This document shows positions 1 through 24,657 of a stretch of DNA of 57,819 bases, piece after piece. The position numbers and the translations under genes were made by a program. This DNA is from a bacterium. Its GTDB lineage: Bacteria > Auribacterota > Erginobacteria > Erginobacterales > DAOSXE01. A model generated the notes under the pieces. The model was given only the letters and a program-made list of their open reading frames with translations, had not been told where the DNA came from and made no database searches. The stretch is from positions 1 to 57,819 of the forward strand of contig DAOSXE010000020.1 in the NCBI GenBank assembly GCA_035380285.1. Direction: 5' to 3'. Positions within the stretch are counted from its first letter, which is position 1. Every line of letters starts with the position of its first letter.

Positions 1-1089
1 GTCGATGGTGCGCATGATGTCGTCCCGGGTTTCGGAGGGCGCTCCGATCATGAAATAGCCCAGGGTCTCGATCCCCAGTTTCTTGGTGGCGGCGAACGTT
101 TCCCGGACCTGGTCGAGGGTGATCCCTTTGTTGAGGACGGCCAGGATCTTTTCGGTCCCGGCCTCCACCCCGTAATGGATGCGTTCGCAGTGGGCCCGGC
201 GCAGGCGTTCCAGCATCGGGGCGTCGACGCAATCCACCCGGGCCCGGATGTCCCAACCGATATCGAGGCGCCGGCGGATGATTTCGTCGCAGACCTCCAT
301 TACCCGGGGCTTGCTCACGGTGAAGGTGTCGTCGTAGACCAGGAACTCGTGGATGCCCAACTCCAGGCAGGCCTCCATCTCGTCGACCACGTTGACGGCG
401 CTGCGGGCCCGGAACCGCTTTCCCAGATGGGGTCTGCCGCAGAACGAGCAGCGGAAAGGGCATCCCCGGCTGGTGATCATGGTCGTGATCGGCTGGCGCT
501 TGGCCATGACCGAGCTGTAGTTGCGCCAGGGGGTGAGGGTCCGGTCGGGGAAGGGAAGGGCGTCCAGGTCGGCGACCAGTTCCGCGGGGGGGTTGCGGTG
601 AAAACCGTATTCGTCCGTCCAGGCCAGGCCCGGCACGCTCTCCCGCGCGCCCTTCCCGTCCAGGCAGTCGGCCAGGGCGGCGAAGCCGGCTTCTCCCTCC
701 CCGGCCAGGACGTAATCGACGCCGTCCAGCCGTGCCGTCTCTTCCGGATAGATGAAGACATGCCCCCCGCCCACGACCACCGGGACCCCCGGGCACGCCT
801 CCTTGACGGTGCGGACGGTCTTGACCACGTCCAGGAGGGTGAAGGTCATGGCGGTGATGCCGACCAGGCCGGCCTTCGCTTCCCGGATCCTGGCCTCCAG
901 TTCCGGATAGGTCAGCTCCTCCACCTGGGCGTCGATCACCTCCACTTCATGCCCGGTTTTCTCCTTGAGGTAACCGCCGATATAGAGCAGCCCCAGCGGG
1001 GGGTTGAAGCCCCGCTCCTCGTCGATCAGGGCCGGGTTGTTCCCGGTGAGTTCGTTTTCCCGGGGCGGATTGATCAGAAGGACTTTCAC
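1..1089 (-). CDS. B12-binding radical SAM protein (3' end cut by the window edge)
   Basis: The reverse-strand translation has an N-terminal B12-binding-like domain (VKVLLINPP...GLLYIGGYL) followed by a CxxxCxxC radical SAM core (SRGCPFRCSFCG). The GTG start at 1089 overlaps the stop of the downstream GT2 by 4 nt (GTGA). The listed + ORF 175..1095 is its antisense shadow. Confidence 0.7.
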   Translation of the reverse strand, partial: MKVLLINPPRENELTGNNPALIDEERGFNPPLGLLYIGGYLKEKTGHEVEVIDAQVEELTYPELEARIREAKAGLVGITAMTFTLLDVVKTVRTVKEACPGVPVVVGGGHVFIYPEETARLDGVDYVLAGEGEAGFAALADCLDGKGARESVPGLAWTDEYGFHRNPPAELVADLDALPFPDRTLTPWRNYSSVMAKRQPITTMITSRGCPFRCSFCGRPHLGKRFRARSAVNVVDEMEACLELGIHEFLVYDDTFTVSKPRVMEVCDEIIRRRLDIGWDIRARVDCVDAPMLERLRRAHCERIHYGVEAGTEKILAVLNKGITLDQVRETFAATKKLGIETLGYFMIGAPSETRDDIMRTID

Positions 1090-1946
1090 CGCTGAATCCG
1101 CTTATCGATCAGGTCGGCGATCAGGGCCAGGCCCATCATCTGCAGCCCCGACATGATCACCACGATGACGGTTATATCCATGACCCGTCCCAACACGAAT
1201 TTGCTGTAGACGAGGATGCCCGCGGCCAAGAGGAAGAGGAGGACGCCGGCGGGGACGAAAATCTTGAGGGGGTGGAAGTACAGGCTGGTTCTGAGGATGA
1301 GGTTGACCAGATTTCCCGTGTCCTGGACAGGGCGGAACTTGGAGCGTCCTTCCCGGTGGTGGTAGTTGATGGGAAGATAGGCGACGCGGTATCCGTTGCT
1401 GAGAAAAGCCAGGGTGATGGTGGTGGTGAAGGAGAATCCGTCCGGGAAGATGTTGAAGAAGCGCAGGGCCGCTTCGCGGTTGAAGACCCGCAGGCCCGAG
1501 TTCAAGTCCGGAATCTTCATCCCCGCCAGATAATTGGCCATGGCCCGCAGCAGCGCTTTCGGTATCCGGCGGTGGCAGGGGATCGCCACCCGATCCCCGG
1601 TCCGCGACCCCACCACCATGTCGTGGTCGCGGGCGCTCTCGAGGAGAGCGGGGATGGCGTCGATGGGGTAGGTGCCGTCGGCGTCGGTGATGAGGACGGT
1701 GTCGAACTTCGCCGCCCGGATGCCGTCCTTGAGCGAGGCCCCGTAACCCCGGTTGACGGGGTGCCGGATGAGCAAAGCCGCTTCCGGCGCCACCGCGGCC
1801 GCGGTCCCGTCGGTGGAGGCGTCGTCGACGACGATGACCTCGAAGTCCACCCCGCTGTCGGCCATGACCGACCGCACCTGCCCGACCACCGGGGCGATGC
1901 CCGATTCCTCGTTGTAAGCCGGTATGACTATCGATACCCCGTTCAT
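1086..1946 (-). CDS. Family 2 glycosyltransferase, polyprenol-phosphate sugar synthase type (DPM1/GtrB/ArnC-like)
   Basis: It carries the GT2 motifs VSIVIPAYNEE, VVDDASTDGT and DADG, plus a C-terminal transmembrane helix as in GtrB/ArnC/Ppm1. Confidence 0.75.
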   Translation of the reverse strand: MNGVSIVIPAYNEESGIAPVVGQVRSVMADSGVDFEVIVVDDASTDGTAAAVAPEAALLIRHPVNRGYGASLKDGIRAAKFDTVLITDADGTYPIDAIPALLESARDHDMVVGSRTGDRVAIPCHRRIPKALLRAMANYLAGMKIPDLNSGLRVFNREAALRFFNIFPDGFSFTTTITLAFLSNGYRVAYLPINYHHREGRSKFRPVQDTGNLVNLILRTSLYFHPLKIFVPAGVLLFLLAAGILVYSKFVLGRVMDITVIVVIMSGLQMMGLALIADLIDKRIQR

Positions 1947-1967
1947 GTGCGTTCCTCGGATTAAAAA

Positions 1968-4196
1968 CTATATGCCCGGTTCGGGGGCAGTGTCAATCGC
2001 CCCCCCGGACTCCGGCAGGAAATAGTAGCCGACGATCTCGTCCCCCCACCGGTCCCTGATCTCTCCGAGCGCGCCGCGCGCCCCCGTGGATTCGACCGCC
2101 GCCTCCAGCGCCTTCCGGTTGGGGGGGTGGACCACCACCGCTCCCGGTTCGCTTCCCCGGGAGGCGCGCACCAGGGAGTCGGCGAGTCCGGCCGTCCCCG
2201 CGAAGTAGGCGCAGAGGGGATGGGCGGCGATTTCGTGGTAGTCGTAGTACCGGTGGATGTCGGTGTGATAACGGTAGAGCCTCCCCGTTTCCGGGTAGCA
2301 GAGAAAATCGATCGCCCGCGCCGGCCCCAGGGTGGTGTAGAAGCTTTCGAAGTGAACCTCGGTCCGCCGCCCCCGGCGGAAAAGGTCGGCAACGAAAAGC
2401 CCGACCGCGTTCGAATCCGGTTCCTTCATGGCGAAGTAGCGGGAGACGTTCAGGACCGTCAGGGGCAGGAGGTAGAGGACGACGGCCGCCGCCCCCAGGG
2501 AGATTCCGACCCGGCGCGTTTTTCCGGGGAAAAGTCCGAGGAACCTCGACCCCAGGGCGGTGATGAAGACCGCCGCCGCCAGGCAGATCAGGGGGATGCC
2601 GAGAATGAGGTGCCGCGGCGGCGAACCGATGGGTTTGACCAGGGCCATGAAAGGAACGGTTGCGGGCGCGATCCAGAGAACGAGAAACAGGTAGCGGGTG
2701 CGTTTCCAGTGGTACAGCGCCCAGGCCAGGCCCAGAACGGCGGGCAGGAAGACGGCCCGGTTGACCAGGCCGCCCTTGGGGGGATAGGTGAACGAGCCCG
2801 ACCAGCGGTCGACGCAGAGGTTGAGGTAGAGGTCCTCAAGGTTGGTCAGGAGCTGGCCCGGCACCAGTTCCCAGCGCATGGACATATCCGCCCGCGATTC
2901 GCTGCCGATGAAGGGGTAGATGCTTCCCCCCTTGGAGCTTTTGTAGGCGGTGTCGGCGATCATCCCCAGGCTCCCGGCCTGGATGGAGAAAAAAACCGCG
3001 AAGACGGCCAGAAAGACGAGGAAGCCGGGCAGGTTGCGGCGGAAAAAACCGCGCCGCAGCGCGGCCCGCGCCACCCACAGCGCCAGAAGCATGGGGAGCA
3101 CGATTTTGACCGGGAGGTAGCAGAAACCGTAGAAACTGAGGACGAACCCCAGGAAGAGATAGGGGAGGATCCGCTGGGAGCGGATGGCGGTGAAGAAGAG
3201 GTTGAAGACGAGCAGGGCGAAGGCGATGCTCATGCTCCCGAACATGCCGGCTCTGAAGATGGTCATATGCCAGGGGGAGATGGCGAAGAGCGCGGCGGCC
3301 AGGAGTCCGGCGCCGGGGGAGAAGAGCCGGGCACCCAACAGGTAGAGCAGGGCGATGGCGGCCATCCCCCAGAGGACGGAGATGCTTCGGAACGCGACCA
3401 GATGAACCCCGAAGAGGCGCATCATCTCGGCGGCGGGAACGGTAAAAAGCGCCGAACTGCAGGAATCCGCCCCGTAGGAGCGGGGAAAATAGGTCCAGAT
3501 GAAATCGGTGGTGTCGGGGTCTCCTTCCAGAAGCTGGACGCCGACCAGGGCGTTGGTGGCTTCGAATTCGTCGAAACGGGGCTGGCTGTCGATCCGGTAG
3601 AAGCCGGCGGCGGTGGCGGCCAGCAGCAGAGCGCCCAGTCCGGCGGCGTACATCCCCCCCCGTTTCCCGCGCCCCGGCTCCGCGGGGCCCGGGAACAGCC
3701 CGGCGACCAGGACCGCTCCCGCCGCCAGCAGGTAGCGGATGAACCCCTCCCGGCCCAGGCCGTCGCTCAGTCGGTTTTCCGCACTCAGGGCCAGCGCCAG
3801 GGCCAGGGCCAGGAAGAGGAAGCCCCCGGCGCGCCGCCGCCGCGCCGCCGCCGCCGCGACCGCGGCCAGAAACAGCGCCGCGCCGCCGATCCCGAACAGG
3901 ACTTCGCCGCGGTTTTTCATGAACAGGACGGCGGCGCCGGCGCCGCGGTCGATGGTTTCGAAAACGGGTCGCAGCGCCGGCAGCGAGCCTTCGGGACCGA
4001 AAGCCGTCTTCCGGGCGGCCGTCAGCACCCCGGCGAAAAACAGGGCGTACAGAACCGCCGCCGCCGTCCCCGCGGCCAGGGCCCGCCGGTTCGGCGGTAC
4101 CCGCTCCCGGCGCAGGAACAGACCTCCGGCGACCAGGACCAGAGCCAGGGCCGCCATCCGAAAGACGGGAGCGAGGATGAAGCTCCCGGAACTCAC
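1968..4196 (-). CDS. GT-C fold membrane glycosyltransferase, PMT_2/ArnT-like (GT39/GT83 family), with an extra N-terminal multi-TM extension
   Basis: A DEFE loop motif is followed by the PMT_2-like pattern (MRLFGVHLVAFRSISVLWG...AISPWH), with many TM helices and a long soluble C-terminus. The first ~190 codons of the listed ORF are low-complexity. The chosen start is the GTG at 4196, which overlaps the upstream stop (GTGA); the ATG at 4157 is an alternative. Confidence 0.6.
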   Translation of the reverse strand: MSSGSFILAPVFRMAALALVLVAGGLFLRRERVPPNRRALAAGTAAAVLYALFFAGVLTAARKTAFGPEGSLPALRPVFETIDRGAGAAVLFMKNRGEVLFGIGGAALFLAAVAAAAARRRRAGGFLFLALALALALSAENRLSDGLGREGFIRYLLAAGAVLVAGLFPGPAEPGRGKRGGMYAAGLGALLLAATAAGFYRIDSQPRFDEFEATNALVGVQLLEGDPDTTDFIWTYFPRSYGADSCSSALFTVPAAEMMRLFGVHLVAFRSISVLWGMAAIALLYLLGARLFSPGAGLLAAALFAISPWHMTIFRAGMFGSMSIAFALLVFNLFFTAIRSQRILPYLFLGFVLSFYGFCYLPVKIVLPMLLALWVARAALRRGFFRRNLPGFLVFLAVFAVFFSIQAGSLGMIADTAYKSSKGGSIYPFIGSESRADMSMRWELVPGQLLTNLEDLYLNLCVDRWSGSFTYPPKGGLVNRAVFLPAVLGLAWALYHWKRTRYLFLVLWIAPATVPFMALVKPIGSPPRHLILGIPLICLAAAVFITALGSRFLGLFPGKTRRVGISLGAAAVVLYLLPLTVLNVSRYFAMKEPDSNAVGLFVADLFRRGRRTEVHFESFYTTLGPARAIDFLCYPETGRLYRYHTDIHRYYDYHEIAAHPLCAYFAGTAGLADSLVRASRGSEPGAVVVHPPNRKALEAAVESTGARGALGEIRDRWGDEIVGYYFLPESGGAIDTAPEPGI

Positions 4197-6298
4197 GGCT
4201 CTTCCGGCACCGGCCGGTCGAAGATCGCCGTCCGGGCGATCCGTCTTCCGAACCGGTCCCTGGGTTCGTCGATCCGGGCTCCGGGCAGTTCCCGCGCCAG
4301 TTCCGGCACCCGGCGGGACGCCGGCTGCTGGTCGGCGACTACCAGCGCCGCCGGCCTCCCCCCGGCGGACAGCTCCCGGGCGGTCCGTTCGACCAGGTCG
4401 GGGCGGATGTAGCGGTATCCGTAGGCCGGTTTCCCGGAAGTATCGAGGAGGAGGAAGTTGATGGTCTTGCGGCTGAGATCGTTGATGGGGACCACGACCA
4501 GCTCGTATTCGCGCGGAAAGGAGAGAAGATAATCGTCGAACGAGCGTTCCTCGTCCCAGCGACCCGCCGGTTGGTTGCTGTCGAAAAAGACGTGACAGTT
4601 GAAGACTCCGATTCCGGCCAGTCCCGCCGCCGTCAGGACGGCCGCCGCCGCCCCGCCGGTTTTCCCCAGCGCCGCCCGGGCCAGGACGGAAAAGCGGGAA
4701 AGCGGGATCGCGGCCAGGCAGTAGATGAAGGGCCATGAAACCATCATTCGTCTGACCATCACCGGGGGCCGGGAGAGCAGGTTGGGGACGAGGAAGGCCG
4801 CCAGGAAGAAGAGCAGAAGCCGGTAGTTCAATTTTCGGATACGGGCCAGGGCGGTGCCGATTCCGAGGATGAAAAGGACCGAAACGCCCGGGTTGAAAAA
4901 GAGGTTTCCCCGCGGCCAGGGGTCGTAGTTGAAGTTGCGGGAAAAGAAGAAATCTTCTCCCAGCTTGAGCAGGTTTTCCCAGACCAGGGGAAGCCCCCGG
5001 AGGTAGTCGGCCTGGGGGGTGTAGAGATGGCCCTGGGTCCGGTGCCAGACCGATTCGTAGCCGGCGAAACTGGGGGCCATGACCCGGAAGACGGGGATGT
5101 TCAACACGGCCCCGATCGCGACGACGGCGAGGACCCCGGCGGCCAGGCCGGGCAGGTTTCCCCGCAGAAACCCCCGGTGGAAGAACAGGAAAAAGAGAAT
5201 GAGAACCGCCGCCAGCAGCACCGGGTATTTGGCCGGTGAATAAAAATAACCGGCGAAGGAGCAGGCGGCCCCCAGCAGGATCCAGGAGGTGACGTCGCGC
5301 CGCAGCAGGGCCCTCAGCAGCAGGAACACGATAAGAAGGCTGACCGTCTGGGTCGAACAGAGCAGGAGCCCGATCCGGCTGTAGTTGATGTGGAGGGGGG
5401 AAACGGCCATGAGCAAGGCGGAAATCAGGGCCAGCCGTTTTCCGAAGAGGATGCCGACGATGCCGTAGGTGAGGAGGACGGACAGGGTGCCGTAGACGAC
5501 CGGAACCAGCTTCAGGGAGGCCAGGGAAACCCCGAGGAGACGAAAGGAGAGGGCTACGCAGTAGGTGTAGACGGGGGAGAGGTTCAGATGCCCCAGCCCC
5601 CGCCAGATGGTGGAGGTCCAGAGGGAGGGAGCGTGTTGGCCGTTGAGGACGTTGAGCGCCTGCCAGGCATAGTCGGACTCGTAGTGGTCGAAGCGGACGG
5701 AAACCGCCCCCAGCAGGTGGACCCTGAGGGCGAAGGCGAGCAGGACCGTCAGGGCCGCCATCGCCGCAGCCGGCACGCCTTCAGCCCAGGGCCGTCCCCC
5801 GGATCGAAGCGGGGACGGGGAAGCCGCGGCCGAGGCGAAGGCGTAGACGCCTCCCGCCACCAGGAACAGGGGTCCCCAGAAGAAGTTCCAGGCGCTCAGG
5901 AAGACGCCGCCGGCCAGGGCGAAGGACAAGCCCAGAACCAGGAGGATGAAGCCGGCGCCCCCCTTCCTCCGGGCCACCCCCGCCCAGAGGATCAGTCCCG
6001 CCGCCAGGGCGGCCGCCGCGCGCCGGAGCAGGGGCAGGTGGGGAAAAAGCCAGTCGTCCAGCGCCCGCCCCGCCTTCACCGCGGGGTCCACGATTTTTCC
6101 GGTGAGGGCGGAGGTGCCTCCGGGGAGGACGGCCGCCGCCCAACACCCCCATCCGATCGCGGCCGCGGTCGCCAGGACCAGGAGGGTCTTCCACCGGGTC
6201 CGGCGGTAGGCCGGCGCCGTGAAGAACCCCTTGACCGCCAGCCCGGCCGCTATTCCGCCGGCGCCCAGAACGAGCAGGATGATCCGGGACGGTTGCAT
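4193..6298 (-). CDS. GT-C fold membrane glycosyltransferase, PMT_2/ArnT-like (GT39 family)
   Basis: The HYESDYAWQALNV loop is followed by FRLLGVSLASLKLVPVVYGTLSVLLTYGI..AVSPLH, typical of PMT_2/ArnT. It has at least 10 TM helices and a soluble C-terminal domain. Confidence 0.65.
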   Translation of the reverse strand: MQPSRIILLVLGAGGIAAGLAVKGFFTAPAYRRTRWKTLLVLATAAAIGWGCWAAAVLPGGTSALTGKIVDPAVKAGRALDDWLFPHLPLLRRAAAALAAGLILWAGVARRKGGAGFILLVLGLSFALAGGVFLSAWNFFWGPLFLVAGGVYAFASAAASPSPLRSGGRPWAEGVPAAAMAALTVLLAFALRVHLLGAVSVRFDHYESDYAWQALNVLNGQHAPSLWTSTIWRGLGHLNLSPVYTYCVALSFRLLGVSLASLKLVPVVYGTLSVLLTYGIVGILFGKRLALISALLMAVSPLHINYSRIGLLLCSTQTVSLLIVFLLLRALLRRDVTSWILLGAACSFAGYFYSPAKYPVLLAAVLILFFLFFHRGFLRGNLPGLAAGVLAVVAIGAVLNIPVFRVMAPSFAGYESVWHRTQGHLYTPQADYLRGLPLVWENLLKLGEDFFFSRNFNYDPWPRGNLFFNPGVSVLFILGIGTALARIRKLNYRLLLFFLAAFLVPNLLSRPPVMVRRMMVSWPFIYCLAAIPLSRFSVLARAALGKTGGAAAAVLTAAGLAGIGVFNCHVFFDSNQPAGRWDEERSFDDYLLSFPREYELVVVPINDLSRKTINFLLLDTSGKPAYGYRYIRPDLVERTARELSAGGRPAALVVADQQPASRRVPELARELPGARIDEPRDRFGRRIARTAIFDRPVPEEP

Positions 6299-6307
6299 GG
6301 GCCGGGG

Positions 6308-6991
6308 TCAGTCCGAGAAGGATATCTTCATGTTGGTGTAGGCCGGTCCCGCGTCCTTGGCTTCCATCCGGTTGATTTCATGGAAGAAGCGGTCGTCGAA
6401 GACCGGATCCTCCCCCGGCCATCCCCCCGAACCGCGGTAGACGTGGGTGTTGCGCCCTCCGGGCCAGGTGCAGCCTACGAAAATGACGGCGTCTTCGCTG
6501 CTGAACGAAAATTCGCTCCAATCCCCGGTTTCCTTCGCGGTCAGGAATTCGGAACGGGCGATCTCCCGGTCGGGTTTGTTGTCGCCGTTGCGGTCGGCGA
6601 AGGCCACGATGTGAAATCCGCCGTCTTCTCCCTCCAGGGCGTGGGCGATGCGGACGGTCACGGTGCTCCCGGTTTTCTTTTCGGGCTTGACCCGCCAGAC
6701 CCAGAGGACATAGTTGCCCTGGGTGTTATGGATGTTGCCGGTCATCAGGCCTTTTTCGGCCATCTCCCGGGGCATCGTCGGCGGTTTGCGGGGTCGGGGC
6801 GCGGCCCGGTCGGGGGCTTCCCGGGAGTCGCGGCCGGCGGAGGAGAAAAGGCTCTTGACCCAGGCCGCCGCTCCCCCGGCCGGTCCCCGGGGGAAGAAGG
6901 GCCGAACGGTATCGTAGGCTACCGCCAGAAAGAGCGCCACCCCGGCGACTATCAAGACGTTGCCCCACAATCTGCGGCTGAACAGTTTCAT
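6308..6991 (-). CDS. Membrane-anchored secreted protein consisting of the conserved domain of unknown function shared with three GT-C enzymes of this locus
   Basis: An N-terminal signal anchor is followed by a ~115-aa domain (GGFHIVAFADRNGDNKPD...GDWSEFSF...IFVGCTW...YTNMKISF). The same domain sits at the C-termini of the proteins at 7101..9158, 9155..11374 and 20867..23542. Confidence 0.6.
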   Translation of the reverse strand: MKLFSRRLWGNVLIVAGVALFLAVAYDTVRPFFPRGPAGGAAAWVKSLFSSAGRDSREAPDRAAPRPRKPPTMPREMAEKGLMTGNIHNTQGNYVLWVWRVKPEKKTGSTVTVRIAHALEGEDGGFHIVAFADRNGDNKPDREIARSEFLTAKETGDWSEFSFSSEDAVIFVGCTWPGGRNTHVYRGSGGWPGEDPVFDDRFFHEINRMEAKDAGPAYTNMKISFSD

Positions 6992-7046
6992 AGCGATCCC
7001 CGTTTGGTTGGTTCCCGGTCAAAAAGAATACCACCCCCGCTGGGGG

Positions 7047-7058
7047 AGCACTATAATA
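7047..7058 (+). promoter_or_regulatory. Candidate -10 element (cactataatacg) in the divergent intergenic region between the two glycosylation operons
   Basis: A perfect TATAAT lies about 45 nt upstream of the ATG at 7101. No good -35 was found. A small CCCCCGCTGGGGG palindrome sits immediately upstream. Confidence 0.25.
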
Positions 7059-7100
7059 CGGTGATTTACAGCCGAAACTCAAGCGCCGCCTGGGTGAATA

Positions 7101-11374: not shown

Positions 11375-11440
11375 TCTTTCCGGATCGGTCTTGGCGGAGC
11401 CCGGGGGGATGGGGTATGCTCGGAGCCGGGGAGGAAGGAC

Positions 11441-12085: not shown

Positions 12086-12146
12086 TCCGCCGCGGGCCGG
12101 TTTCCGGTCCGGCGCCCGCGGGCGGGGCCGGGGGGAGGGAAGGGAC

Positions 12147-12530: not shown

Positions 12531-12531
12531 G

Positions 12532-12885
12532 GTGAACGACATGTTTCCGGTGAACGGACGGCTTTTGCGGATTTTCGTGGGGGAGAGCGACCGGTACGAA
12601 GGAATGCCCCTCTACCAGTGGATCGTACGACGGGCGCGGGAATCGGGGTTGGCCGGAGTTACGGTACTTCGGGGTATGGAGGGTTTCGGCCCCGACAGCA
12701 GGATGCACACCGCCAGGATACTGAGGCTGGCCCAGGACCTGCCCATCGTGATCGAAATCATCGATACCCCCGAGAAGATCGCCTCCTTCGTCCCCGACGT
12801 CGACCGGGTCATCGCCGAAGGCTTGATGACCCTGGAAGAAGTGCAGGTGCGCTTTTACCGTGCCGGCGCCGCGGAAGGTGAGTGA
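12532..12885 (+). CDS. DUF190 family protein (commonly linked to crcB and fluoride response)
   Basis: MFPVNGRLLRIFVGESDRY..PLYQWIV is typical of DUF190. It is immediately downstream of crcB. An ATG at 12541 with a GAGGTG SD is an alternative start. Confidence 0.65.
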   Translation: MNDMFPVNGRLLRIFVGESDRYEGMPLYQWIVRRARESGLAGVTVLRGMEGFGPDSRMHTARILRLAQDLPIVIEIIDTPEKIASFVPDVDRVIAEGLMTLEEVQVRFYRAGAAEGE

Positions 12886-13975: not shown

Positions 13976-13991
13976 AGCCGGAGACGCAGGG

Positions 13992-15873: not shown

Positions 15874-16832
15874 AAACCGCCGCCGATAGTTCCGCTCCCA
15901 TCCTGGTAACCGGAGCTTCCGGCTTCCTCGGCCGGCACATCGTCCCCGTTCTCAGGGAGCGGTACGGCGCCGACCGGGTGGTGGGCGTTTCCTCCTCGGA
16001 TTACGATCTGACCGAGCAGGACCAGGTCCGGGCCATGTACCGCGACATCGCCCCGGGACGGGTCGTAGCTCTGGCCGGCTACGTGGGCGGCATCGGCGCC
16101 AACCGCGACTACCCCGCCGACTTCTTCTACCGCAATATCGTCATGAACACCCTGACCATCCATGAAGGTTGGAGGGCGGGCGCGGAGAAACTCCTGGCGG
16201 TGATGGGGGGGTGCAGCTATTCGGCGACCGCCCCGTCCCCCCTCCGCGAGGAACAGATCTGGGACGGGTTCCCGGCGGCGGAGAGCGCCCCGTATTCCAT
16301 GGCCAAGAAGATGGGCCTGCTCCAGGCGGCCGCCTACCGCGCCCAGTACGGGTTCAACGCCGTCGTCCTCGTTCCCGGGAACGTCTACGGCGAATACGAC
16401 AACTTCGAGCTGGCCAACTCCCACGTCGTCCCGGCCATGATCAGGAAATTTCACGAGGCCGCCCTCCGCCGGGAACCGCGGGTCGTCCTCTGGGGCAGCG
16501 GATCCCCCACCCGGGACTTCGTCTACGCCGCCGACGTCGCCGGGCTCTTTCCCTGGTTCCTCGACCGTTACGACAGCTCCGAACCGGTGAACCTCTCCAC
16601 CGGGGTCTCCACCTCGATCCGGGAACTGGCGGTCCTGACCGCCGAACTGACCGGGTACCGGGGGGAGATCGTCTGGGACACCTCCCAGCCGGACGGGAAA
16701 AAGTACAAGATCTTCGCGGCCGACCGGCTCCACGGCCTGGGCCTTTCCTGTCCCACTCCGCTGCGGGAAGGCCTGGAGAAGACGGTGCGTTGGTTCGCCG
16801 AACACTACGGACGGGGGGACGTCCGGCTGTGA
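15870..16832 (+). CDS. fcl: GDP-L-fucose synthase (GDP-4-keto-6-deoxy-D-mannose 3,5-epimerase/4-reductase)
   Basis: GASGFLG, YSMAKK and the Fcl-type NVYGEYDNF..SHVVPAMIRKFHEA signature are present. The GTG start overlaps the upstream stop. Confidence 0.65.
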   Translation: MKTAADSSAPILVTGASGFLGRHIVPVLRERYGADRVVGVSSSDYDLTEQDQVRAMYRDIAPGRVVALAGYVGGIGANRDYPADFFYRNIVMNTLTIHEGWRAGAEKLLAVMGGCSYSATAPSPLREEQIWDGFPAAESAPYSMAKKMGLLQAAAYRAQYGFNAVVLVPGNVYGEYDNFELANSHVVPAMIRKFHEAALRREPRVVLWGSGSPTRDFVYAADVAGLFPWFLDRYDSSEPVNLSTGVSTSIRELAVLTAELTGYRGEIVWDTSQPDGKKYKIFAADRLHGLGLSCPTPLREGLEKTVRWFAEHYGRGDVRL

Positions 16833-17611
16833 AGGCCGTGGTCCTGGGGGGTAAGGGGTTCGTGGGCTCGGCCCTGGTCCGGGAAGCCGAGCGCCGGGAA
16901 ATCGAGTGCCTGGCCGTCGACCTCGACAATTACCGGGAGTGCCGGGGGACGGAGTGCGACCTCTTCATCAACGCCGCCGGCAACTCCCGCAAGTACCTGG
17001 CCGCCCGCGAGCCCGCCGAGGATTTCCGTATTTCCCTGGGAGGGCTGATCTCGTCTTTCGGGGATTTCCGGTTTTCCCATTACGTCTACATCTCCAGCGT
17101 CGACGTCTACCCCGACCCTTCCTCCCCCGCCCGAACCCGCGAGGAAGCCGTCATCGACGTCGCCTCCGTCTCCAACTACGGGCTCCATAAATACCTGGGA
17201 GAGCAGATGGTCAGGCACTACGCTTCCTCCTGGCTGATCCTGCGGCTGGGGGGGATCCTGGGGCCCGGCCTGAAGAAGAACCCGGTCTACGACCTCCTCC
17301 ATGGGATCCCGCTCCGGGTCTCCGAAGAGTCCCGCTACCAGTACCTCGACGCCGGTTTTTTCTCCGGTGCCGTCTTCGCCCTGGCGGCGGCCGGCCGATG
17401 GGGGGAGGTCTACAACGCCTGCGGACGGGGGACGGTGGCCCTGCGCGAAGTGCGCCGGATGCTGGATGCCCCCCCGGAGCCGGCACCGGCCTCCGTCCCC
17501 GTGGAGCACTACCGGATCAACAACGACAAACTGGGCGAGTTCACGGAAATACCGGCCACTGCCGACACCGTCCGGGATTTCATCGCCGCCAGGGAAGCGA
17601 GGCAGCCATGA
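16829..17611 (+). CDS. Short NAD(P)-dependent sugar epimerase/reductase (RmlD-like SDR)
   Basis: GGKGFVGSAL and YGLHK are present. The GTG at 16829 overlaps the fcl stop (GTGA). The N-terminal part of listed ORF 16169..17611 is out-of-frame readthrough of fcl. Confidence 0.5.
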   Translation: MKAVVLGGKGFVGSALVREAERREIECLAVDLDNYRECRGTECDLFINAAGNSRKYLAAREPAEDFRISLGGLISSFGDFRFSHYVYISSVDVYPDPSSPARTREEAVIDVASVSNYGLHKYLGEQMVRHYASSWLILRLGGILGPGLKKNPVYDLLHGIPLRVSEESRYQYLDAGFFSGAVFALAAAGRWGEVYNACGRGTVALREVRRMLDAPPEPAPASVPVEHYRINNDKLGEFTEIPATADTVRDFIAAREARQP

Positions 17612-18624
17612 TCATTTCCCAGACCCCGGTCAGGGTGAGTTTTTTCGGGGGAGGCACCGACTTCCCCGAGTATTTCGAGGAGCACCCCGCCGCGGTGCTC
17701 TCCACCACCATCGACAAATACGGCTACCTGACGGTCAGCTACCTCAGCGGTTTTTTCGACTATCGGATCAAGGCCTCGTATTCGCGGGCGGAGACCGTGG
17801 CCACGGTCGACGAACTCAAGCATCCGGCGATCAAGGCCTGCCTGCGGTTTCTGGGGATCGAGGAGAACATCGAGATCAACTACTTTTCCGACCTCCCGGC
17901 CCGGACCGGCCTGGGAACGTCATCGTCCTTCGTGGTCGGCCTCCTCAACGCGCTCTACGCCTACCAGGGCCGGCGGGTTTCGGCCGATCAACTGGCCCGG
18001 GAAGCCGTCTACGTCGAACGGGAACTGGTGGGGGAAAACGTGGGGCTCCAGGATCAGTACGCCGCCGCCTACGGAGGGCTCAACTACATCGGGTTCCACC
18101 CGGGACGGGTCGTCAAGATCGAGCCCATCATCTGCCCCCCGGAGACGATCGAGCTTCTCGACCGCAATCTCATGCTTTTCTACACCGGTATCCAGCGCTA
18201 TTCCGAAACCATCCAGCAGGAACACGTGGCCAGGATCGGATCCAACCTCGGCCACCTGGCCGACCTGGCGGCGCTGGCGCCGGCCGGAAGGGACCTGCTC
18301 GAGAGCCGCCGGCCCGACCTCAGGGAGTTCGGGCGCCTGCTCCACGAAAGCTGGCTTCTGAAAAAGTCCATGGGAAGCGGCGTCTCCATCCCCGAGATCG
18401 ACCGGATGTACGAGGCGGCCCGGAGCGCCGGCGCCTTGGGGGGAAAACTGCTGGGCGCCGGCGGCGGCGGCTTCCTCCTCCTCTACGTCGAGGAGCCCTG
18501 CCGCCCGGCGGTGAGAAAGGCCCTGGCCTCCAAGCTCGAAGTGACTTTCAATTTCGAGAGCAACGGGACCCACATCGTTTTTTACGACCCCCAGCGCCTG
18601 GCGCCTCCGCCGGACCCGGTCTGA
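17608..18624 (+). CDS. GHMP family sugar kinase (HddA/fucokinase-like)
   Basis: GLGTSSSFVVGLLNAL is the GHMP ATP-binding motif. The ATG overlaps the upstream stop (ATGA). Confidence 0.6.
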   Translation: MIISQTPVRVSFFGGGTDFPEYFEEHPAAVLSTTIDKYGYLTVSYLSGFFDYRIKASYSRAETVATVDELKHPAIKACLRFLGIEENIEINYFSDLPARTGLGTSSSFVVGLLNALYAYQGRRVSADQLAREAVYVERELVGENVGLQDQYAAAYGGLNYIGFHPGRVVKIEPIICPPETIELLDRNLMLFYTGIQRYSETIQQEHVARIGSNLGHLADLAALAPAGRDLLESRRPDLREFGRLLHESWLLKKSMGSGVSIPEIDRMYEAARSAGALGGKLLGAGGGGFLLLYVEEPCRPAVRKALASKLEVTFNFESNGTHIVFYDPQRLAPPPDPV

Positions 18625-18692
18625 CCCCGTCGCCTCCGCGGCGCAGATTAAAGGTGCAAAACGCCGCGGGCTTGTGTGATAATTCCCGACCC

Positions 18693-19421
18693 ATGGAACC
18701 GATCAGCATAATCGTATCCACCTTCAACGAGGAGGACACCATCGTCGGGGTCCTCGAGGGGCTGGCCGCCCACGCTCCGGGGTCCGAGATCCTCGTCGTT
18801 CACGGCGGCCGCGACGGAACCGCCGAAGCCGCCCGGAGATGGGGCAAGGAGCGCCCCGAGATCGATCTCAAGGTCATCCGCAATTTCGGGGACGTGGGGA
18901 AGGGCCACGCCATCAAACTGGGGATCAGCGTCGCTTCCCACCCGGTCATGCTCCAGTTCGACGCCGACCTCCAGTTTTCCCCGGCGGACATCCCCGCGAT
19001 GGTCGAACCGCTGTCCGCCGGCGAAGCGGACCTGGTGGTGGGGTCCCGGTTCATGAAAGGGGTCGACAAATCCGCTTACCGTTCCAGTTTCTTCCGCGAC
19101 CTGGGCAACACCCTGCTCAACCGCTGGATCTCCGTTCTGGCCGGGAGTGCCTTTACCGACGTCACCACCGGGATGAAGGCCTGGACGGCGGAAGCCGTCT
19201 GGAAGATCCCCTTTCGGGACAACCGCTACGTTTACGAGATGGAGATCGTGGTCCGGGGAGCCCTGGCCGGTCTCAGGATCGTTCAGATCCCGGTCGTGTA
19301 CGCCAGCCGCCAGGGGGGCGCTTCCGGCCACGGTTCCGGGCTCCGGGAGTTCTGGAGCATCGCCCGGACCGGGTTCATGATCGGTTGCCGGGCCCTGGAG
19401 ATCCGCTTGGGGATCTGGTAG
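18693..19421 (+). CDS. Family 2 glycosyltransferase (DPM1-like polyprenol-phosphate sugar synthase, catalytic domain only)
   Basis: IIVSTFNEEDTI and DADLQ (DxD) are present. The product is 242 aa. Confidence 0.65.
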   Translation: MEPISIIVSTFNEEDTIVGVLEGLAAHAPGSEILVVHGGRDGTAEAARRWGKERPEIDLKVIRNFGDVGKGHAIKLGISVASHPVMLQFDADLQFSPADIPAMVEPLSAGEADLVVGSRFMKGVDKSAYRSSFFRDLGNTLLNRWISVLAGSAFTDVTTGMKAWTAEAVWKIPFRDNRYVYEMEIVVRGALAGLRIVQIPVVYASRQGGASGHGSGLREFWSIARTGFMIGCRALEIRLGIW

Positions 19422-19427
19422 GTTTTT

Positions 19428-20870
19428 ATGCCGTCCGCCCGCACACCCGAGGGAGCGCCTCTCCTGATCCTGGGAGGGGGACCGGCCGGTCTGGCCGCGG
19501 GCCTGGAAGCGGCCCGGCGGGGGCTCCGCCCCCTGGTCGTCGAGGCCGGAGAAGTCGTGGGCGGGGTATCTTCCTCCCTGTACTGGAACCGCTTCATCCT
19601 CGAATACGGCCCCCACACCTACCACGTCAAGCACGACCGGATCGACGACCTGGTCCGCGAGGTATACGGCGGGGATCTGCCCTACAAGCAACGGATCACG
19701 CGGATGCTCCTGCGGGGGAAGATGTTCGACTACCCCCTCAAGTTCTGGCAGCTCCTGCGCGGCCTCAACCCGTTTTTTTCGGCCCGCATGCTCCTGGATT
19801 TCGTCTTCACCTCGATCCGCTACCGGATCTTTCCGCGTCCCGACGACTCTTTCCGGACCTGGGGGGTGAAACGTTTCGGCACCACCCTCTATAACCTCTG
19901 CTTCGGCCGCTACACCGAGCGGATCTGGGGGGTGCCGGCCGACCGGCTCTCGGTCCGGCTCGCCTCTTCCAAGCTGCACAAGCTCAATCTCAAGGACGTG
20001 ATCGTCAAGCTCCTGGGGGGGAAGGGGCAGGAGCAGGCGACCTACTGGGAGGACTTCCTCTATCCCGAGGAAGGGATGGGGATCGTCTTCGAGAAAATGG
20101 CCGCCGAGATCGTCCGGCTGGGGGGGGAAGTCTGGCTCGACAGCCGCCCCTCCGCTTTCGTTTTCGATGGGAGCCGGATCGCCTCGGTCAAAATCGACCG
20201 TGCGGGCGGGCCGGCCGAGGTGCCGGTGTCGGCGGTGGTTTCGACCATCCCCCTTCCCGCCCTGGGGCTGCTGGTGCGGGGAAAGGTCCCGGAAGACGCC
20301 TACCGGGCTTCCCAGGCCCTGGCGAGCCGTTCGCTCGTCCTGGTCAACCTGATCGTGAGGATGCCCATGGTTTCGGAAGCGCATTGGGTCTACCTGCTCG
20401 ACCCCCGGTTCCGCTTCAACCGGTTCTGCGAGCAGAAGAACCTGCTCCTGGAGAAGAAACCGCCCCTGGAAACCATGCTCACCTTCGAAGCCTGCTGCGG
20501 GTATCGCGACGAGTTCTGGAACCTGCCCGATTCCGCGCTGGTCAAGCTGGCCCTGGAAGATATCGGCCGCATCGAACGCATCGACGGGAGCCGGGTCACC
20601 GAAACCCTGGTGCGGAGGGTAAAGGACGCCTACCCCGTTTACGGGGTCGGGTTCGAGGGGGAACTGGAACGCTTCTTCATCGGCGCCGCCGGGATCGACA
20701 ACCTCTATCCCACCGGCCGCCAGGGGCTGTTTCTCAACACCGATATGCACGACACCATGGAACTGGGCCTGCTCGCGGTCGAGGCCATCGCGGACGGAGT
20801 CCCCGGGCGGGACTGGTACGGTCGGATCGTTTCCTGGCTCCCCTACGCTCCCCCGGAGGAAGAGCGATGA
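19428..20870 (+). CDS. FAD/NAD(P)-binding oxidoreductase (amine-oxidase fold; UDP-galactopyranose mutase-like)
   Basis: LILGGGPAGLAAGLEAARRG is a dinucleotide-binding motif. It lies within a sugar-modification operon. Confidence 0.5.
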   Translation: MPSARTPEGAPLLILGGGPAGLAAGLEAARRGLRPLVVEAGEVVGGVSSSLYWNRFILEYGPHTYHVKHDRIDDLVREVYGGDLPYKQRITRMLLRGKMFDYPLKFWQLLRGLNPFFSARMLLDFVFTSIRYRIFPRPDDSFRTWGVKRFGTTLYNLCFGRYTERIWGVPADRLSVRLASSKLHKLNLKDVIVKLLGGKGQEQATYWEDFLYPEEGMGIVFEKMAAEIVRLGGEVWLDSRPSAFVFDGSRIASVKIDRAGGPAEVPVSAVVSTIPLPALGLLVRGKVPEDAYRASQALASRSLVLVNLIVRMPMVSEAHWVYLLDPRFRFNRFCEQKNLLLEKKPPLETMLTFEACCGYRDEFWNLPDSALVKLALEDIGRIERIDGSRVTETLVRRVKDAYPVYGVGFEGELERFFIGAAGIDNLYPTGRQGLFLNTDMHDTMELGLLAVEAIADGVPGRDWYGRIVSWLPYAPPEEER

Positions 20871-23542
20871 CCCCGGCCGCGGCGGCAGGCGGCGGACGCG
20901 GGAAGCTCTGGTTCCTCGCGGCGGCCGCGGTCCTGACGGCCGGGGCGCTCTGGCTCCGCCTCGATTTCATCGGCAACCGCCCCCAGCTCCCGGTGGTCTG
21001 GGACGCCGCCGGTTACAACCTTCAGGCCCGGGAGTTCGCCGCCGCCTGGAGCTCCTGGGGCACTCCCGACTTCGACGCTCACTACCGCAAGGCCTGGGAG
21101 ATGGCGTTGCCCAAATGCGAACTCTATCCCCTGGCCATGAGCCTGGTCTACTGGCTGCACCGCTGCGATTTCCAGGCGGTGCGGGTGGCGCAGGGCGTGG
21201 TGGGAACGGTCAACTGTCTCCTGACCCTGCTGATCGCCCTGGCGGTGTTCCGCCGCCGGAGCGTGGCCCTGGGCGCCCTGCTGATCTCGGCGCTCTACCT
21301 CCCCGCCGTCTTTTCCGAAGGCAGGCTTCTGACCGAGACCGTGGCCGTCTTCGCCCTCCTGCTCGCGACCGTCCTGCTCCTGGCCGCCGTCTCCCGGGGC
21401 GGCTGGTGGTGGATGGTCCTGGCCGGCCTCGCCACCGCCCTGCTCATGATCTCCCGGACGTTTTTCCAGTACGTCTTCATCGTCGACATCCCCTTGTTGG
21501 CCGCCGGCCTCCGGTTCCGCCGCCACCGGGGGTGGTGGTGGAAAACGGGTCTCTACGCCGCGGCCGTCGCCGCCGTCATCGTTCCCCGCTACTTCTGGAC
21601 CGGGGAGGTCGACTCCAAGGGCCGGCACTGGATCAGCGGGTCCTGGCGCAACGGCCTGGCCATCTATACCGGGATCTACCCCCCCAACCAGGGCCTGCAG
21701 ACCGACGCCGACCCCGGAGGAGAGATTCACCGGGAGATCTTCGGTTCCCGGGGCCGGGAGACGCCGATCGACGATCTCTATTTCAAGGCCTACCTGCAGG
21801 TCCTGCTCCGTCGCCCGGCCGCGGCGGTGCCGGTGCTGCTGTCCAAGGGCGGCCTGTTCTGGCACCGGGCCTACAACGATTTCCGCCAGTCCTACCTGCT
21901 GGACGCGGACGGGATCGATCGCCTCAACCGGGTTTTGCTCTTGGCCGGGGTCTTCGGGTTGGGGCTGGCGGTCGGGTTGGGCCCGAGGGGCTGGATCTTC
22001 CTGGCCACCGCCCTCTATATCTGGGCCCTCTGCTTCGCCGCCGACGCCGAAAGCCGCTACACCCTGCCGGCGATGCCGTTCATGATCGGCGCCGCCTGCT
22101 GGTTCGTCTTCAACCTGGTTTCGGGGGCGGCGGCGACCTGGCGGTCCCGGGTCCGCCTGCGGCTGCTGGCGTCGCTGGGGCTGATCGTGGCGACCGGGGC
22201 GCTGACCTGGCTTACCCGCCCCCCCCGGCTGCTCCCCGGTTTGGAACCCCAGACCGCCTTCCGGGTCTGGCGGCTCTGCGCCGGCCTTTTCGCCCTTTCC
22301 CCGATCCCCCTCCTGGCCCTGGTCTACCGCTTCCGCCCGGGCGGCGGTCGCCGGCGCTGGTGGAGCGCCGCGGCTCCGGCGGTCGCCGTTCTACTCGTCT
22401 TCCTCGCGGCCATCGGGATCCCGCCCCGGTGGCATGAATGGAAAGTGAGACTCCAGCGCCCGGGGCAGACCGTCCGCCAGACGATCTCGCTTCCGGAGGA
22501 CCTGGAGCGCTACCGGGGGGCCGAATTGAAGCTCGACCTCCTCTCCGGCCCCGGAAGGCTCTACGATCTCGTGGTCAAGGTGGACGGCGCTCCCGTCCGG
22601 ATCTTCCAGCGGGGTCTGAGCCCGGATCCGGGTTCGTACATCGCCTCCCGGCGGGCTTTCCCCGTCTATCTGCGGGAGGAACGCCGGCATCTGAACCAGG
22701 TCCGACAGTGGTATTCGGTTCCCCTGGATATCCAGAAGCTGCGGGGGCGCCGGGAGCTGGAAGTCGAACTCGAGTTCCGCCCGGCGGCGGCGGGGGCGGA
22801 CAACTACGTCGAGCTGTACGGGGATTATCTTATCGAGGGCCCCGGCGTTTTCGAGGGGCCCACGTTCTCTCAATCCCCCCGGGACCTGTCCCTCTACCGG
22901 TACCTCTTCTTCGACGACTGGCGTCTCTGGCGGAAATGGGACCTGGCCGCGCCCGCCCGGGCCGTCTCCGGGCCCGGGGGAGGGGATCTCGCCGCCGATC
23001 CGGGTCTCCAGACCGGACGCTACCGGATTCTCCTCGACCTCTCGCGGTTGAGCCCGGGGAGGGGAGAGTTCCCGGTCGCCGTCCGCAACCAGGAGTATCT
23101 GACCGACAAGACCGTGCTGGCCGACTATTACAACCTCCAGGTCTGGGAACTCAACCCCTGGAAACGGACGGGCAGCGAACTGCTGGTGGAAGCGGCCCAC
23201 GCCGCACCGGGGGAGGAAGGCGGGTTCACCCTCGTGGTCTACGAGGACGCGGACGGCGACCATCAGCCCGACCGGCTCTGGGCGCGTTCGTCGTACCTGA
23301 CCGGGGAAAAAACCGGCGCCTGGAGTTCCTGGACGGTGGCGCTTCCCGACGCGTCCCGCCCGGTTTTCGTGGGGATGAGCTGGCCTCCCGGAAGCAAGAC
23401 CCGAGTCTACTACGAACGCAAGCTCTGGCCGGACGAAATCTTTCCCGAGGTCATGTACTATCGCCCCGGCCCCAACGCACCCAAAGCCTACCCGGTTTTG
23501 ACCAACCTCCGCGTCTCCTTCCTCGATGCCGGCAAAAAATAA
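20867..23542 (+). CDS. Large GT-C-type multi-TM glycosyltransferase with a long periplasmic C-terminal region ending in the locus-specific domain
   Basis: The ATG at 20867 overlaps the upstream stop (ATGA); earlier codons of the listed ORF overlap the oxidoreductase in another frame. It has about 11 TM helices and its last 138 aa match the shared domain. Confidence 0.6.
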   Translation: MTPAAAAGGGRGKLWFLAAAAVLTAGALWLRLDFIGNRPQLPVVWDAAGYNLQAREFAAAWSSWGTPDFDAHYRKAWEMALPKCELYPLAMSLVYWLHRCDFQAVRVAQGVVGTVNCLLTLLIALAVFRRRSVALGALLISALYLPAVFSEGRLLTETVAVFALLLATVLLLAAVSRGGWWWMVLAGLATALLMISRTFFQYVFIVDIPLLAAGLRFRRHRGWWWKTGLYAAAVAAVIVPRYFWTGEVDSKGRHWISGSWRNGLAIYTGIYPPNQGLQTDADPGGEIHREIFGSRGRETPIDDLYFKAYLQVLLRRPAAAVPVLLSKGGLFWHRAYNDFRQSYLLDADGIDRLNRVLLLAGVFGLGLAVGLGPRGWIFLATALYIWALCFAADAESRYTLPAMPFMIGAACWFVFNLVSGAAATWRSRVRLRLLASLGLIVATGALTWLTRPPRLLPGLEPQTAFRVWRLCAGLFALSPIPLLALVYRFRPGGGRRRWWSAAAPAVAVLLVFLAAIGIPPRWHEWKVRLQRPGQTVRQTISLPEDLERYRGAELKLDLLSGPGRLYDLVVKVDGAPVRIFQRGLSPDPGSYIASRRAFPVYLREERRHLNQVRQWYSVPLDIQKLRGRRELEVELEFRPAAAGADNYVELYGDYLIEGPGVFEGPTFSQSPRDLSLYRYLFFDDWRLWRKWDLAAPARAVSGPGGGDLAADPGLQTGRYRILLDLSRLSPGRGEFPVAVRNQEYLTDKTVLADYYNLQVWELNPWKRTGSELLVEAAHAAPGEEGGFTLVVYEDADGDHQPDRLWARSSYLTGEKTGAWSSWTVALPDASRPVFVGMSWPPGSKTRVYYERKLWPDEIFPEVMYYRPGPNAPKAYPVLTNLRVSFLDAGKK

Positions 23543-24640: not shown

Positions 24641-24657
24641 GCAACGAGGAGGAGACG

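Follow-up and report, generated by a model that had tools for sequence, protein, structure and literature searches.

A putative envelope glycan locus joining Dpm1-like GT2 synthases, a B12 radical SAM enzyme and GT-C transferases in an uncultured Auribacterota-like bacterium

Lipid-linked monosaccharide donors, used together with glycosyltransferases of the GT-C fold, build mycobacterial arabinan, lipid A modifications, O-antigen side chains and protein mannosylation. Here we analysed a 57,819-nucleotide stretch of DNA (contig DAOSXE010000020.1; hereafter the window) and the glycosylation genes in its first 23,542 positions. We hold, with moderate confidence, that these genes belong to a conserved locus for a cell-envelope glycan, and that this locus follows a split logic in which family 2 glycosyltransferases (GT2s) are paired with GT-C enzymes. 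The host is an uncultured anaerobe of the PVC group that resembles Candidatus Auribacterota. We therefore class the locus as a variant, from an uncultured phylum, of the known polyprenyl-phosphate-sugar/GT-C logic. No described locus matching the whole arrangement was found in the literature, in agreement with an earlier note on this DNA that could match it to none.

The nearest described systems in terms of design are the Gtr systems of Salmonella and Shigella (GtrA/GtrB/GtrC) and the Citrobacter GT136 pentofuranose system, in which a lipid-linked monosaccharide made on the cytoplasmic side serves as the donor for a GT-C enzyme that acts outside the membrane (Kelly et al. 2024, PMC11127046). 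In Citrobacter, the ORF13 epimerase changes the sugar at the lipid-linked stage (PMC11127046). Mycobacterial arabinan and lipoarabinomannan assembly (Ppm1 or DPPR synthase, DprE1/DprE2, Emb, Aft, PimE) likewise employs many GT-Cs that use polyprenyl-phosphate monosaccharides for a complex external glycan; redox enzymes remodel the donor on the lipid, and the carbohydrate-binding modules (CBMs) of Emb and AftD bind the growing glycan. Alteration of a lipid-linked sugar before its use by a GT-C has precedents in ArnC/ArnD/ArnT, PpgS/Rv3779, DprE1/E2 with Emb/Aft, and HpnI/HpnK/HpnJ. In the last of these, the hopanoid pathway, the GT2 HpnI attaches a sugar to a lipid, where a B12 radical SAM enzyme goes on to rearrange it.

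The core of the window consists of two divergent operons, one running leftward on the minus strand from 6991 and the other rightward on the plus strand from 7101. Together they hold two Dpm1/GtrB-like GT2s, five GT-C-fold membrane proteins, five short-chain dehydrogenases/reductases (SDRs), an HddA-like GHMP kinase, a flavoprotein resembling UDP-galactopyranose mutase (UGM) and a B12 radical SAM enzyme. Reading frames were picked by third-position GC in this GC-rich sequence (65-70%), and public gene calls on identical metagenome contigs concur; the DNA is also present on a 159-kb JGI contig, in ENA assemblies and in NCBI MAGs. All genes named in the earlier note were present within a few codons of where it had placed them, and its description of two divergent operons of these families was borne out by the coordinates, third-position GC, public gene calls and family matches alike. 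The gene list stands, while the extent of the locus had to be redrawn: an insert interrupts it (see below), and it continues for about 4 kb beyond the left window edge, as read on an identical contig (L008). There, the remainder of the 473-aa radical SAM protein is followed by a 688-aa Agl23-family protein and then by a convergent third GT2.

The GT2s are the candidate donor synthases. GT2a (1086..1946, minus strand; 286 aa; Dpm1/GtrB/AglJ-like) matched PF00535 at 88 bits and the models for AglJ, PpgS and DolP-hexose transferase at 114, 90 and 90 bits, all below their equivalog cut-offs. Its hydrophobic segments at residues 229-279 form a C-terminal tail, so that it shares the GtrB-like layout of a GT2 domain with a short C-terminal membrane anchor. 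GT2b (18693..19421, plus strand; 242 aa; Dpm1/AglJ-like) is a soluble protein in which no hydrophobic segment was found; it matched PF00535 at 77 bits, and AglJ and DolP-hexose transferase at 105 and 79 bits, both below cut-off. DAD motifs, of the DXD type, lie at residues 88-90 of GT2a and 90-92 of GT2b. The best NCBIfam matches of the GT2s (AglJ, PpgS, DolP-hexose transferase, ArnC and PgfS) all fell short of equivalog level. Judged by these sequence features, both enzymes are predicted to be polyprenyl-phosphate glycosyltransferases of the Dpm1/GtrB type. The third, Dpm1-like GT2 (241 aa; L008:14390-15115) lies left of window base 1, on the strand opposite to the gene for the Agl23-family protein.

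The putative transferases form a diverse set. GTC1 (1968..4196, minus strand; 742 aa) and GTC2 (4193..6298, minus strand; 701 aa) are paralogues with 27% identity over 630 residues. GTC3 (7101..9158, plus strand; 685 aa) belongs to a family without a Pfam model, and is followed by GTC4 (9155..11374, plus strand; 739 aa) and, at the far end of the locus, by GTC5 (20867..23542, plus strand; 891 aa), which has two periplasmic beta domains. A Kyte-Doolittle scan revealed 10-14 hydrophobic segments in each of the five (about 14 in GTC1), and the GT-C fold models are helical across residues 1 to about 520. PMT_2 (PF13231) scored above its gathering threshold only in GTC1 (residues 258-402; E 2e-8, 34.9 bits against a cut-off of 26.1), GTC2 (residues 241-397; E 2e-13) and GTC4 (residues 53-197; E 7e-14), and in these three proteins acidic clusters follow the helix that precedes the PMT_2 region. 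GTC3 and GTC5 have no Pfam match of their own, and were assigned by predicted fold; homologues of GTC5 at 50-62% identity do carry PF13231. The AF2 model of GTC5 (pLDDT 78) matched STT3, ArnT, Emb, PglB and Pmt4 in Foldseek with probability 1.0 and E from 3e-5. ArnT (5f15) was the top match of GTC3 and the fourth of GTC5, and the structural matches of the window GT-Cs also take in AftA, AftB, AftD, PimE, Pmt1 and Pmt2. As modelled, the window GT-Cs thus resemble solved GT-C enzymes. The expectation of five GT-Cs with PMT_2/ArnT motifs holds in that all five are GT-C-like, with PMT_2 itself present in three of them. "Five PMT paralogues", in contrast, does not describe proteins that split into at least three distant groups: the membrane parts of GTC3, GTC4 and GTC5 show no detectable mutual similarity, and comparing the GTC3 and GTC5 families profile against profile gave no significant match (probability 4%). 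GTC2, GTC3 and the GTC3-family profile gave no useful match among PDB sequences. D59 is invariant in the GTC3 family and D46 nearly so in the GTC5 family, and either may correspond to the conserved acidic residue that GT-C enzymes have in the first extracytoplasmic loop.

The off-window 688-aa protein (L008:12298-14364) adds a sixth GT-C-like member. It matched TIGR03663 at 230 bits, above the cut-off of 126, which places it in the Agl23 family, and it ends in a PA14/fibro-slime domain. In Haloarcula, Agl22 and Agl23 are a DolP-hexose synthase and a PMT_2-like protein that is required for use or flipping of the lipid-linked hexose (PMC11182771). The protein described here differs in being bacterial, in its added PA14 domain and in being encoded after a GT2-radical SAM pair; flippase activity is known for the archaeal protein only. 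From the fold and the adjacent Dpm1-like GT2 genes, we infer that the window GT-Cs use polyprenyl-phosphate-linked sugar donors. The earlier proposal of a core of polyprenyl-phosphate-sugar GT2s and GT-Cs agrees with the family matches and predicted folds as well as with gene order and synteny across species.

With the Gtr and GT136 systems the locus further shares C-terminal CBM-type domains on its GT-Cs, and auxiliary enzymes that may alter the lipid-linked sugar. It differs from them in having six GT-Cs and three synthases rather than one each, in lacking a gene for a GtrA, SMR or MATE flippase, and in its candidate tailoring enzymes, which are a B12 radical SAM protein and a UGM-like flavoprotein instead of an SDR epimerase or DprE1/E2. 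Moreover, it has a nucleotide-sugar operon of its own, and O-antigen backbone genes are not nearby. The resemblance to mycobacterial arabinan assembly includes Emb, AftA, AftB, AftD and PimE as structural matches of the GT-Cs, whereas no sequence-level relation to Emb or Aft was seen. Also in contrast to the mycobacterial pathway, GT2s supply the donors in place of a UbiA-type PRPP transferase, the fold of the flavoprotein is of the amine-oxidase/UGM kind and not the vanillyl-alcohol-oxidase fold of DprE1, and the phylum and envelope type are different. The locus works like Gtr/GT136-type systems and mycobacterial arabinan assembly and is a member of neither; judged by sequence, their families of synthase, flippase or GT-C are missing from it.

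Directly after GT2a lies the gene for the B12 radical SAM enzyme (1..1089, minus strand), which crosses the left window edge so that the window holds the N-terminal 363 of 473 aa. The protein matched PF02310 and PF04055 at 88 bits each, and its CxxxCxxC cysteines (C210, C214 and C217) are invariant in 24 homologues. These sequence features point to a class B (cobalamin-dependent) radical SAM enzyme. Its best full-length NCBIfam matches were HpnJ and BchE, at an equal 196 bits against cut-offs of 578 and 481, respectively, and it was rejected as an equivalog of either. The comparison with known sugar C-methylases that the earlier note had advised gave AprD4 at 123 bits (cut-off 500) and KedN5 at 59 bits (cut-off 700), so that it is no equivalog of these either. 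With respect to the hopanoid pathway, the enzyme is not an HpnJ orthologue, GT2a matches Dpm1/AglJ-type models and not HpnI, no other hopanoid genes are present, and the partner is a GT-C.

Relatives of the radical SAM enzyme with 57-62% identity occur in Candidatus Brocadia, Anaerolineae, KSB1 and Patescibacteria. In five annotated contexts (L022, L023, L024, L105 and L106) the gene for a 288-299-aa GT2 overlaps the radical SAM start or stops no more than 10 bp from it, which yields a recurrent pair of a GT2 of about 290 aa and a radical SAM protein of about 472 aa, the latter with 45-62% identity across phyla. The pair adjoins PMT_2+PA14 proteins in Brocadia (L022), comes after three PMT_2 genes in Anaerolineae (L023), and in L105 is followed by a 1153-aa PMT_2 protein and more PMT_2 genes. 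In the two KSB1-type contexts (L024 and L106) it lies between a 520-aa polytopic protein without a Pfam match and a methyltransferase plus an LPG_synthase_TM protein. Rnf/Nqr genes and the polytopic protein of about 520 aa precede the pair there (L024:7531-9090, L106:4528-6093), and a sulfotransferase gene lies downstream in L106 only.

In addition, 80 metagenome loci were examined, 19 of which had a radical SAM protein of at least 45% identity and sufficient upstream sequence. A GT2a orthologue (41-52% identity) was encoded directly upstream on the same strand in 13 of these 19, and within 2 kb in three more. Among the 80 loci, paralogous radical SAM proteins at 30-40% identity did not show this upstream GT2a. 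PMT_2 GT-Cs adjoin the pair in L022, L023 and L105, and a Pfam scan of polytopic reading frames next to the metagenome radical SAM genes detected PMT_2 in three further loci (L025, L036 and L039), with six of ten frames giving no match. Few GT-Cs were found beside distant radical SAM orthologues by tblastn with the window GT-Cs, because these proteins diverge fast. On seven contigs (L029, L034, L043, L049, L065, L088 and L092), three to seven paralogous B12 radical SAM genes stand in a run amid SDR and GT2 genes; these may be glycan loci with heavy radical-SAM tailoring. A literature search on cobalamin radical SAM enzymes with polyprenyl or undecaprenyl phosphate or GT-Cs found no description of a GT2-radical SAM module. 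We tentatively suggest, as a possibility that we would not yet bet on, a widespread GT2a-radical SAM-GT-C module in which the radical SAM enzyme would remodel the polyprenyl-phosphate-linked sugar, by C-methylation or an HpnJ-like skeletal rearrangement, and the GT-C would transfer the product outside the membrane.

The order GT2, modifying enzyme, GT-C occurs twice in the locus with tight junctions, first as GT2a, radical SAM enzyme and PA14 GT-C, and again as GT2b, FAD enzyme and GTC5. The second trio may be another case of the same design. Its FAD oxidoreductase (19428..20870, plus strand) begins 6 bp past GT2b and shares an ATGA overlap with the start of GTC5. It carries Amino_oxidase and NAD_binding_8 matches and falls into the uncharacterised PRK07208 group (NF005548, 286 bits against a cut-off of 389). 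The nearest PDB sequences are UGMs (E 4e-10, over the N-terminal 200 or so residues only), which refines the plain "FAD oxidoreductase" of the earlier note to a UGM-like enzyme. A UGM proper was rejected, as TIGR00031 scored 34.5 bits against a cut-off of 304 and the Pfam scan gave no PF03275 (GLF) match.

The remainder of the rightward operon, all on the plus strand, appears devoted to nucleotide sugars. SDR1 (13016..13975) is 4,6-dehydratase-like or decarboxylase-like: it matched TIGR01181 at 187 bits (cut-off 365), the uncharacterised SDR 8vr2 at 340 bits, and dTDP-glucose 4,6-dehydratases and UDP-glucuronate decarboxylases at about 145 bits. For SDR2 (13992..14933), an extended SDR like SDR1, the Epimerase family scored 107 bits and the best PDB match only 81 bits, and specificity is not assignable. 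SDR3 (14926..15873) is closely related to PDB 6VO6, which it matched at 369 bits (E 1.5e-109) with some 58% identity across 305 residues; the name string of that entry is the one of the C. jejuni Cj1427c annotation. SDR4 (15870..16832) resembles GDP-L-fucose synthase, a 3,5-epimerase/4-reductase, with NF047922 at 263 bits (cut-off 500) and full-length matches of about 199 bits to the human and E. coli enzymes. SDR5s (16829..17611; 260 aa) is a short RmlD-like SDR with Epimerase and RmlD_sub_bind matches, which, as for SDR2, point to no particular specificity. The GHMP sugar kinase (17608..18624; 338 aa) is there as reported, although its start is at 17608 and not earlier; it matched NF049969 (HddA) at 137 bits (cut-off 600) and the heptose kinases 3k85 (E 7.5e-40) and 4n3o (E 2.8e-34).

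Capsule loci of C. jejuni hold the same enzyme types, pyranose/furanose mutases included, and yield many GDP-heptoses (PMC10680097). Since these loci combine the same enzyme types (HddA, Cj1427, epimerases, C4 reductases and mutases), the block, which unites in a single operon an HddA-like kinase, a 6VO6-like SDR, a reductase akin to GDP-fucose synthase and a UGM-like flavoprotein, looks like GDP-heptose-type tailoring. The tailoring block of the earlier note is present, with three of its enzymes (kinase, 6VO6-like SDR and GDP-fucose-synthase-like enzyme) speaking for heptose-type and not generic deoxyhexose tailoring. In contrast to the C. jejuni pathway, the window contains no GmhA, HddC, GmhB or cupin C3/C5 epimerase, no enzyme of the block reaches its equivalog cut-off, and the products would feed Dpm1-like GT2/GT-C enzymes instead of cytoplasmic capsule glycosyltransferases.

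The likely acceptor is indicated by the periplasmic domains. GTC3, GTC4 and GTC5 share a C-terminal CBM-like beta-sandwich of about 130 residues with a 227-aa membrane-anchored protein (6308..6991, minus strand) that opens the leftward operon and consists of one N-terminal helix plus this domain, as recognised by its similarity to the GT-C C-termini (37-42% identity, E 1e-21 to 1e-29). Sequence comparison placed the four copies at 6311..6709 (minus strand), 8757..9155, 10979..11371 and 23129..23539 (plus strand), with 37-42% identity among them (E 1e-21 to 1e-30). No Pfam family covers the domain, the anchored protein has no Pfam or NCBIfam match, and a search of 1.84 billion representative proteins with a profile of the domain returned no more than 611 at E <= 0.001. 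These relatives are stand-alone anchored proteins, GT-C fusions, or proteins in which the domain lies downstream of Ser/Thr kinase or transglutaminase-like domains. In EmbC, AftD and the Citrobacter GT136 enzyme, CBM-type domains hold the glycan acceptor (PMC11127046). Four of the six GT-Cs carry carbohydrate-binding-type periplasmic domains (the three CBM-like ones and the PA14 of the sixth), and neither the window nor its left flank yielded a Ser/Thr/Pro-rich candidate target, the highest S+T+P fraction per 40-residue stretch being 0.38, which still leaves room for distant targets. Because of these two observations we favour a glycan over a protein as the acceptor, most likely a polysaccharide or else the glycan that a glycoconjugate carries.

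The same observations bear on protein O-glycosylation of the actinobacterial Ppm1/PMT type, in which the GT-Cs would use lipid-linked sugars to glycosylate secreted or S-layer proteins at Ser/Thr residues, and which the earlier note had proposed as an analogy in the form of O-mannosylation. We regard this explanation as unlikely, even though PMT_2 occurs on three GT-Cs and on homologues of a fourth, Pmt1, Pmt2 and Pmt4 are among the structural matches, and Dpm1-like GT2 partners are present. The related phylum Planctomycetota, furthermore, has an O-glycosylated S-layer protein with methylated sugars (PMC5088730). PF13231 is not PMT-specific, being common to ArnT-like and many uncharacterised GT-Cs; the PMT family itself (PF02366) matched no window protein, and ArnT, ALG and AglB match as well as or better than the PMTs. 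The absence of a Ser/Thr/Pro-rich candidate, for which the earlier note had advised looking among nearby linkers, and the CBM/PA14-like character of the periplasmic domains weaken the analogy further. Finally, the phosphomannomutase at 28470, suggested as the source of the donor, lies 5 kb downstream beyond seven unrelated genes (including Fur, rubrerythrin, ferritin and photolyase) and shows no link to the locus.

Conservation of the gene order speaks to whether the genes form one system. A scan of species-representative genomes for the GTC5 family gave ten loci. Proteins homologous to those of the window bear the names Candidatus Erginobacter occultus, Aureabacteria or PVC group bacterium, which puts the host in or close to Candidatus Auribacterota. 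By tblastn with all locus proteins, the order GTC4, SDR1, SDR2, SDR3, SDR4, SDR5s, GHMP kinase, GT2b, FAD enzyme, GTC5 was found in every sufficiently long contig with 50-82% identity: it is kept in L012-L014, L017, L018 and L020 and partly visible in L011, L015, L016 and L019. In total, the right-hand operon order is kept in at least eight species-level genomes and the whole locus in one more, a second species with a 375-kb contig (L021) that shows the entire divergent arrangement with the PA14 GT-C, radical SAM enzyme, GT2a, GTC1/GTC2 homologues, the anchored protein at the same position, GTC3 and GTC4. As this order is conserved across species, the arrangement is not due to chance.

Alternatively, a Leloir nucleotide-sugar operon and unrelated PMT_2-type genes might be independent units that merely lie side by side, with the radical SAM enzyme having its role elsewhere, for example in lipid or cofactor modification. 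Consistent with this, a deaminase-crcB-DUF190 block is tolerated inside the locus, the left part is rearranged in L019, the KSB1-type GT2-radical SAM pair sits with a methyltransferase and an LPG_synthase_TM protein and not with a Pfam-recognisable GT-C, and the closest radical SAM models (HpnJ, HpnR and ladderane-type) act on lipids. However, the GTC4-to-GTC5 order is kept in many species at 50-80% identity with GT-C genes flanking the sugar operon on both sides, the only glycosyltransferases besides the GT-Cs are Dpm1-like GT2s, with no other Leloir glycosyltransferase and no Wzx, Wzy or ABC exporter in the locus, and the GT2-radical SAM adjacency is kept across phyla. We consider such a juxtaposition quite unlikely. 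An ArnT-like modification of lipid A or LPS core, by which a single sugar would alter surface charge, is very improbable despite the ArnT matches of GTC3 and GTC5 and a weak match of GT2a to the ArnC model (NF007986, 59 bits, with 37 bits for GT2b, against a cut-off of 529), since window scans found no homologues of the ArnA formyltransferase, ArnB aminotransferase, ArnD deformylase or ArnE/F (SMR), six GT-Cs with three GT2s are far more than lipid A decoration needs, and the GT-Cs bear CBM-like domains; the aminoarabinose system with its canonical partners, an identity that the earlier note had kept in view, was therefore rejected.

Taken as an envelope glycan locus, the genes would act in the following order. 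A nucleotide sugar, most likely of the GDP-heptose type, would be tailored in the cytoplasm by the HddA-like kinase, the C4 dehydrogenase that resembles 6VO6, the epimerase/reductase that resembles GDP-fucose synthase, and the other three SDRs. The three Dpm1/GtrB-like GT2s would load single sugars onto polyprenyl phosphate. The radical SAM enzyme would then methylate or rearrange the lipid-linked sugar of GT2a, and the UGM-like flavoprotein would either isomerise the nucleotide sugar before GT2b or act on its lipid-linked product. After flipping, the six GT-Cs would attach the sugars to the acceptor outside the membrane, presumably the envelope glycan, and the Agl23-family member could itself be a flippase, as reported for the archaeal protein (PMC11182771).

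Several points weigh against this scheme. The donors, the sugar, the acceptor and the stage at which the radical SAM enzyme and the flavoprotein would act are deduced from gene content, family and fold assignments, gene order and conservation, and no sugar enzyme or GT2 reaches an NCBIfam equivalog cut-off. The heptose pathway is locally incomplete, as a nucleotidyltransferase, a GmhA-type (sedoheptulose) isomerase and a cupin epimerase are all missing from the 57.8-kb window, and a flippase of the GtrA, SMR or MATE type is not encoded in the locus. PDB entry 6VO6 is taken, tentatively, to be Cj1427 by its name string. UGM-type enzymes usually act on nucleotide sugars, so the flavoprotein may precede GT2b. 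Likewise, the substrate of the radical SAM enzyme could be the lipid carrier, the acceptor or something unrelated, and the two operons could serve different glycans.

As to the remaining features, 8 of the 17 gene junctions have overlapping stop and start codons (seven of 4 bp, GTGA or ATGA, and one of 8 bp), with GTGA overlaps at GT2a/radical SAM, GTC1/GTC2 and GTC3/GTC4; the other nine are gaps of 6-130 bp, and translational coupling of "almost every gene" was thus an overstatement. The divergent intergenic region of 109 bp (6992..7100) holds a single sigma-70-like match on the minus strand (7082..7053), a consensus match only. Just downstream of it, a GC-rich hairpin with a T-rich run (7032..7050, minus strand) may be a leader or regulatory structure of the leftward operon. 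The insert between GTC4 and SDR1 (11441..12885, plus strand) comprises, by Pfam matches, a cytidine-deaminase-like gene (11441..12085), crcB (12147..12530; fluoride channel) and DUF190 (12541..12885). It is absent at that site in nine related genomes, and tblastn detected no counterpart between GTC4 and SDR1 in L012, L013, L017, L018 and L021. Because SDR1 directly follows GTC4 in related genomes, we regard the block as a lineage-specific insert that is probably not part of the glycosylation system. Immediately downstream of the locus (23616..26100) lies an oxidative-stress/iron cluster of Fur, rubrerythrin, desulfoferrodoxin, ferritin and NifU, a set that is typical of strict anaerobes and indicates an anaerobic host; Fur likewise follows GTC5 in L020.

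To our knowledge, few alterations of a lipid-linked sugar have been described, namely deformylation or deacetylation and epimerisation of the DprE1/E2 type. The probable role of the locus is to charge a lipid carrier in the membrane with unusual sugars, which are then joined to a surface glycan on the outer side. If the GT2-B12 radical SAM-GT-C module is real, this cross-phylum unit would add radical chemistry to the known alterations, and C-methylated or rearranged sugars would be expected on the surfaces of many uncultured anaerobes, anammox bacteria included. The three-gene module is a defined unit that is open to testing in vitro. The published Auribacterota genome paper does not discuss envelope glycans, and the locus, with its rare CBM-like domain that lacks a Pfam model, gives a first look at how envelope glycans may be made in Candidatus Auribacterota.

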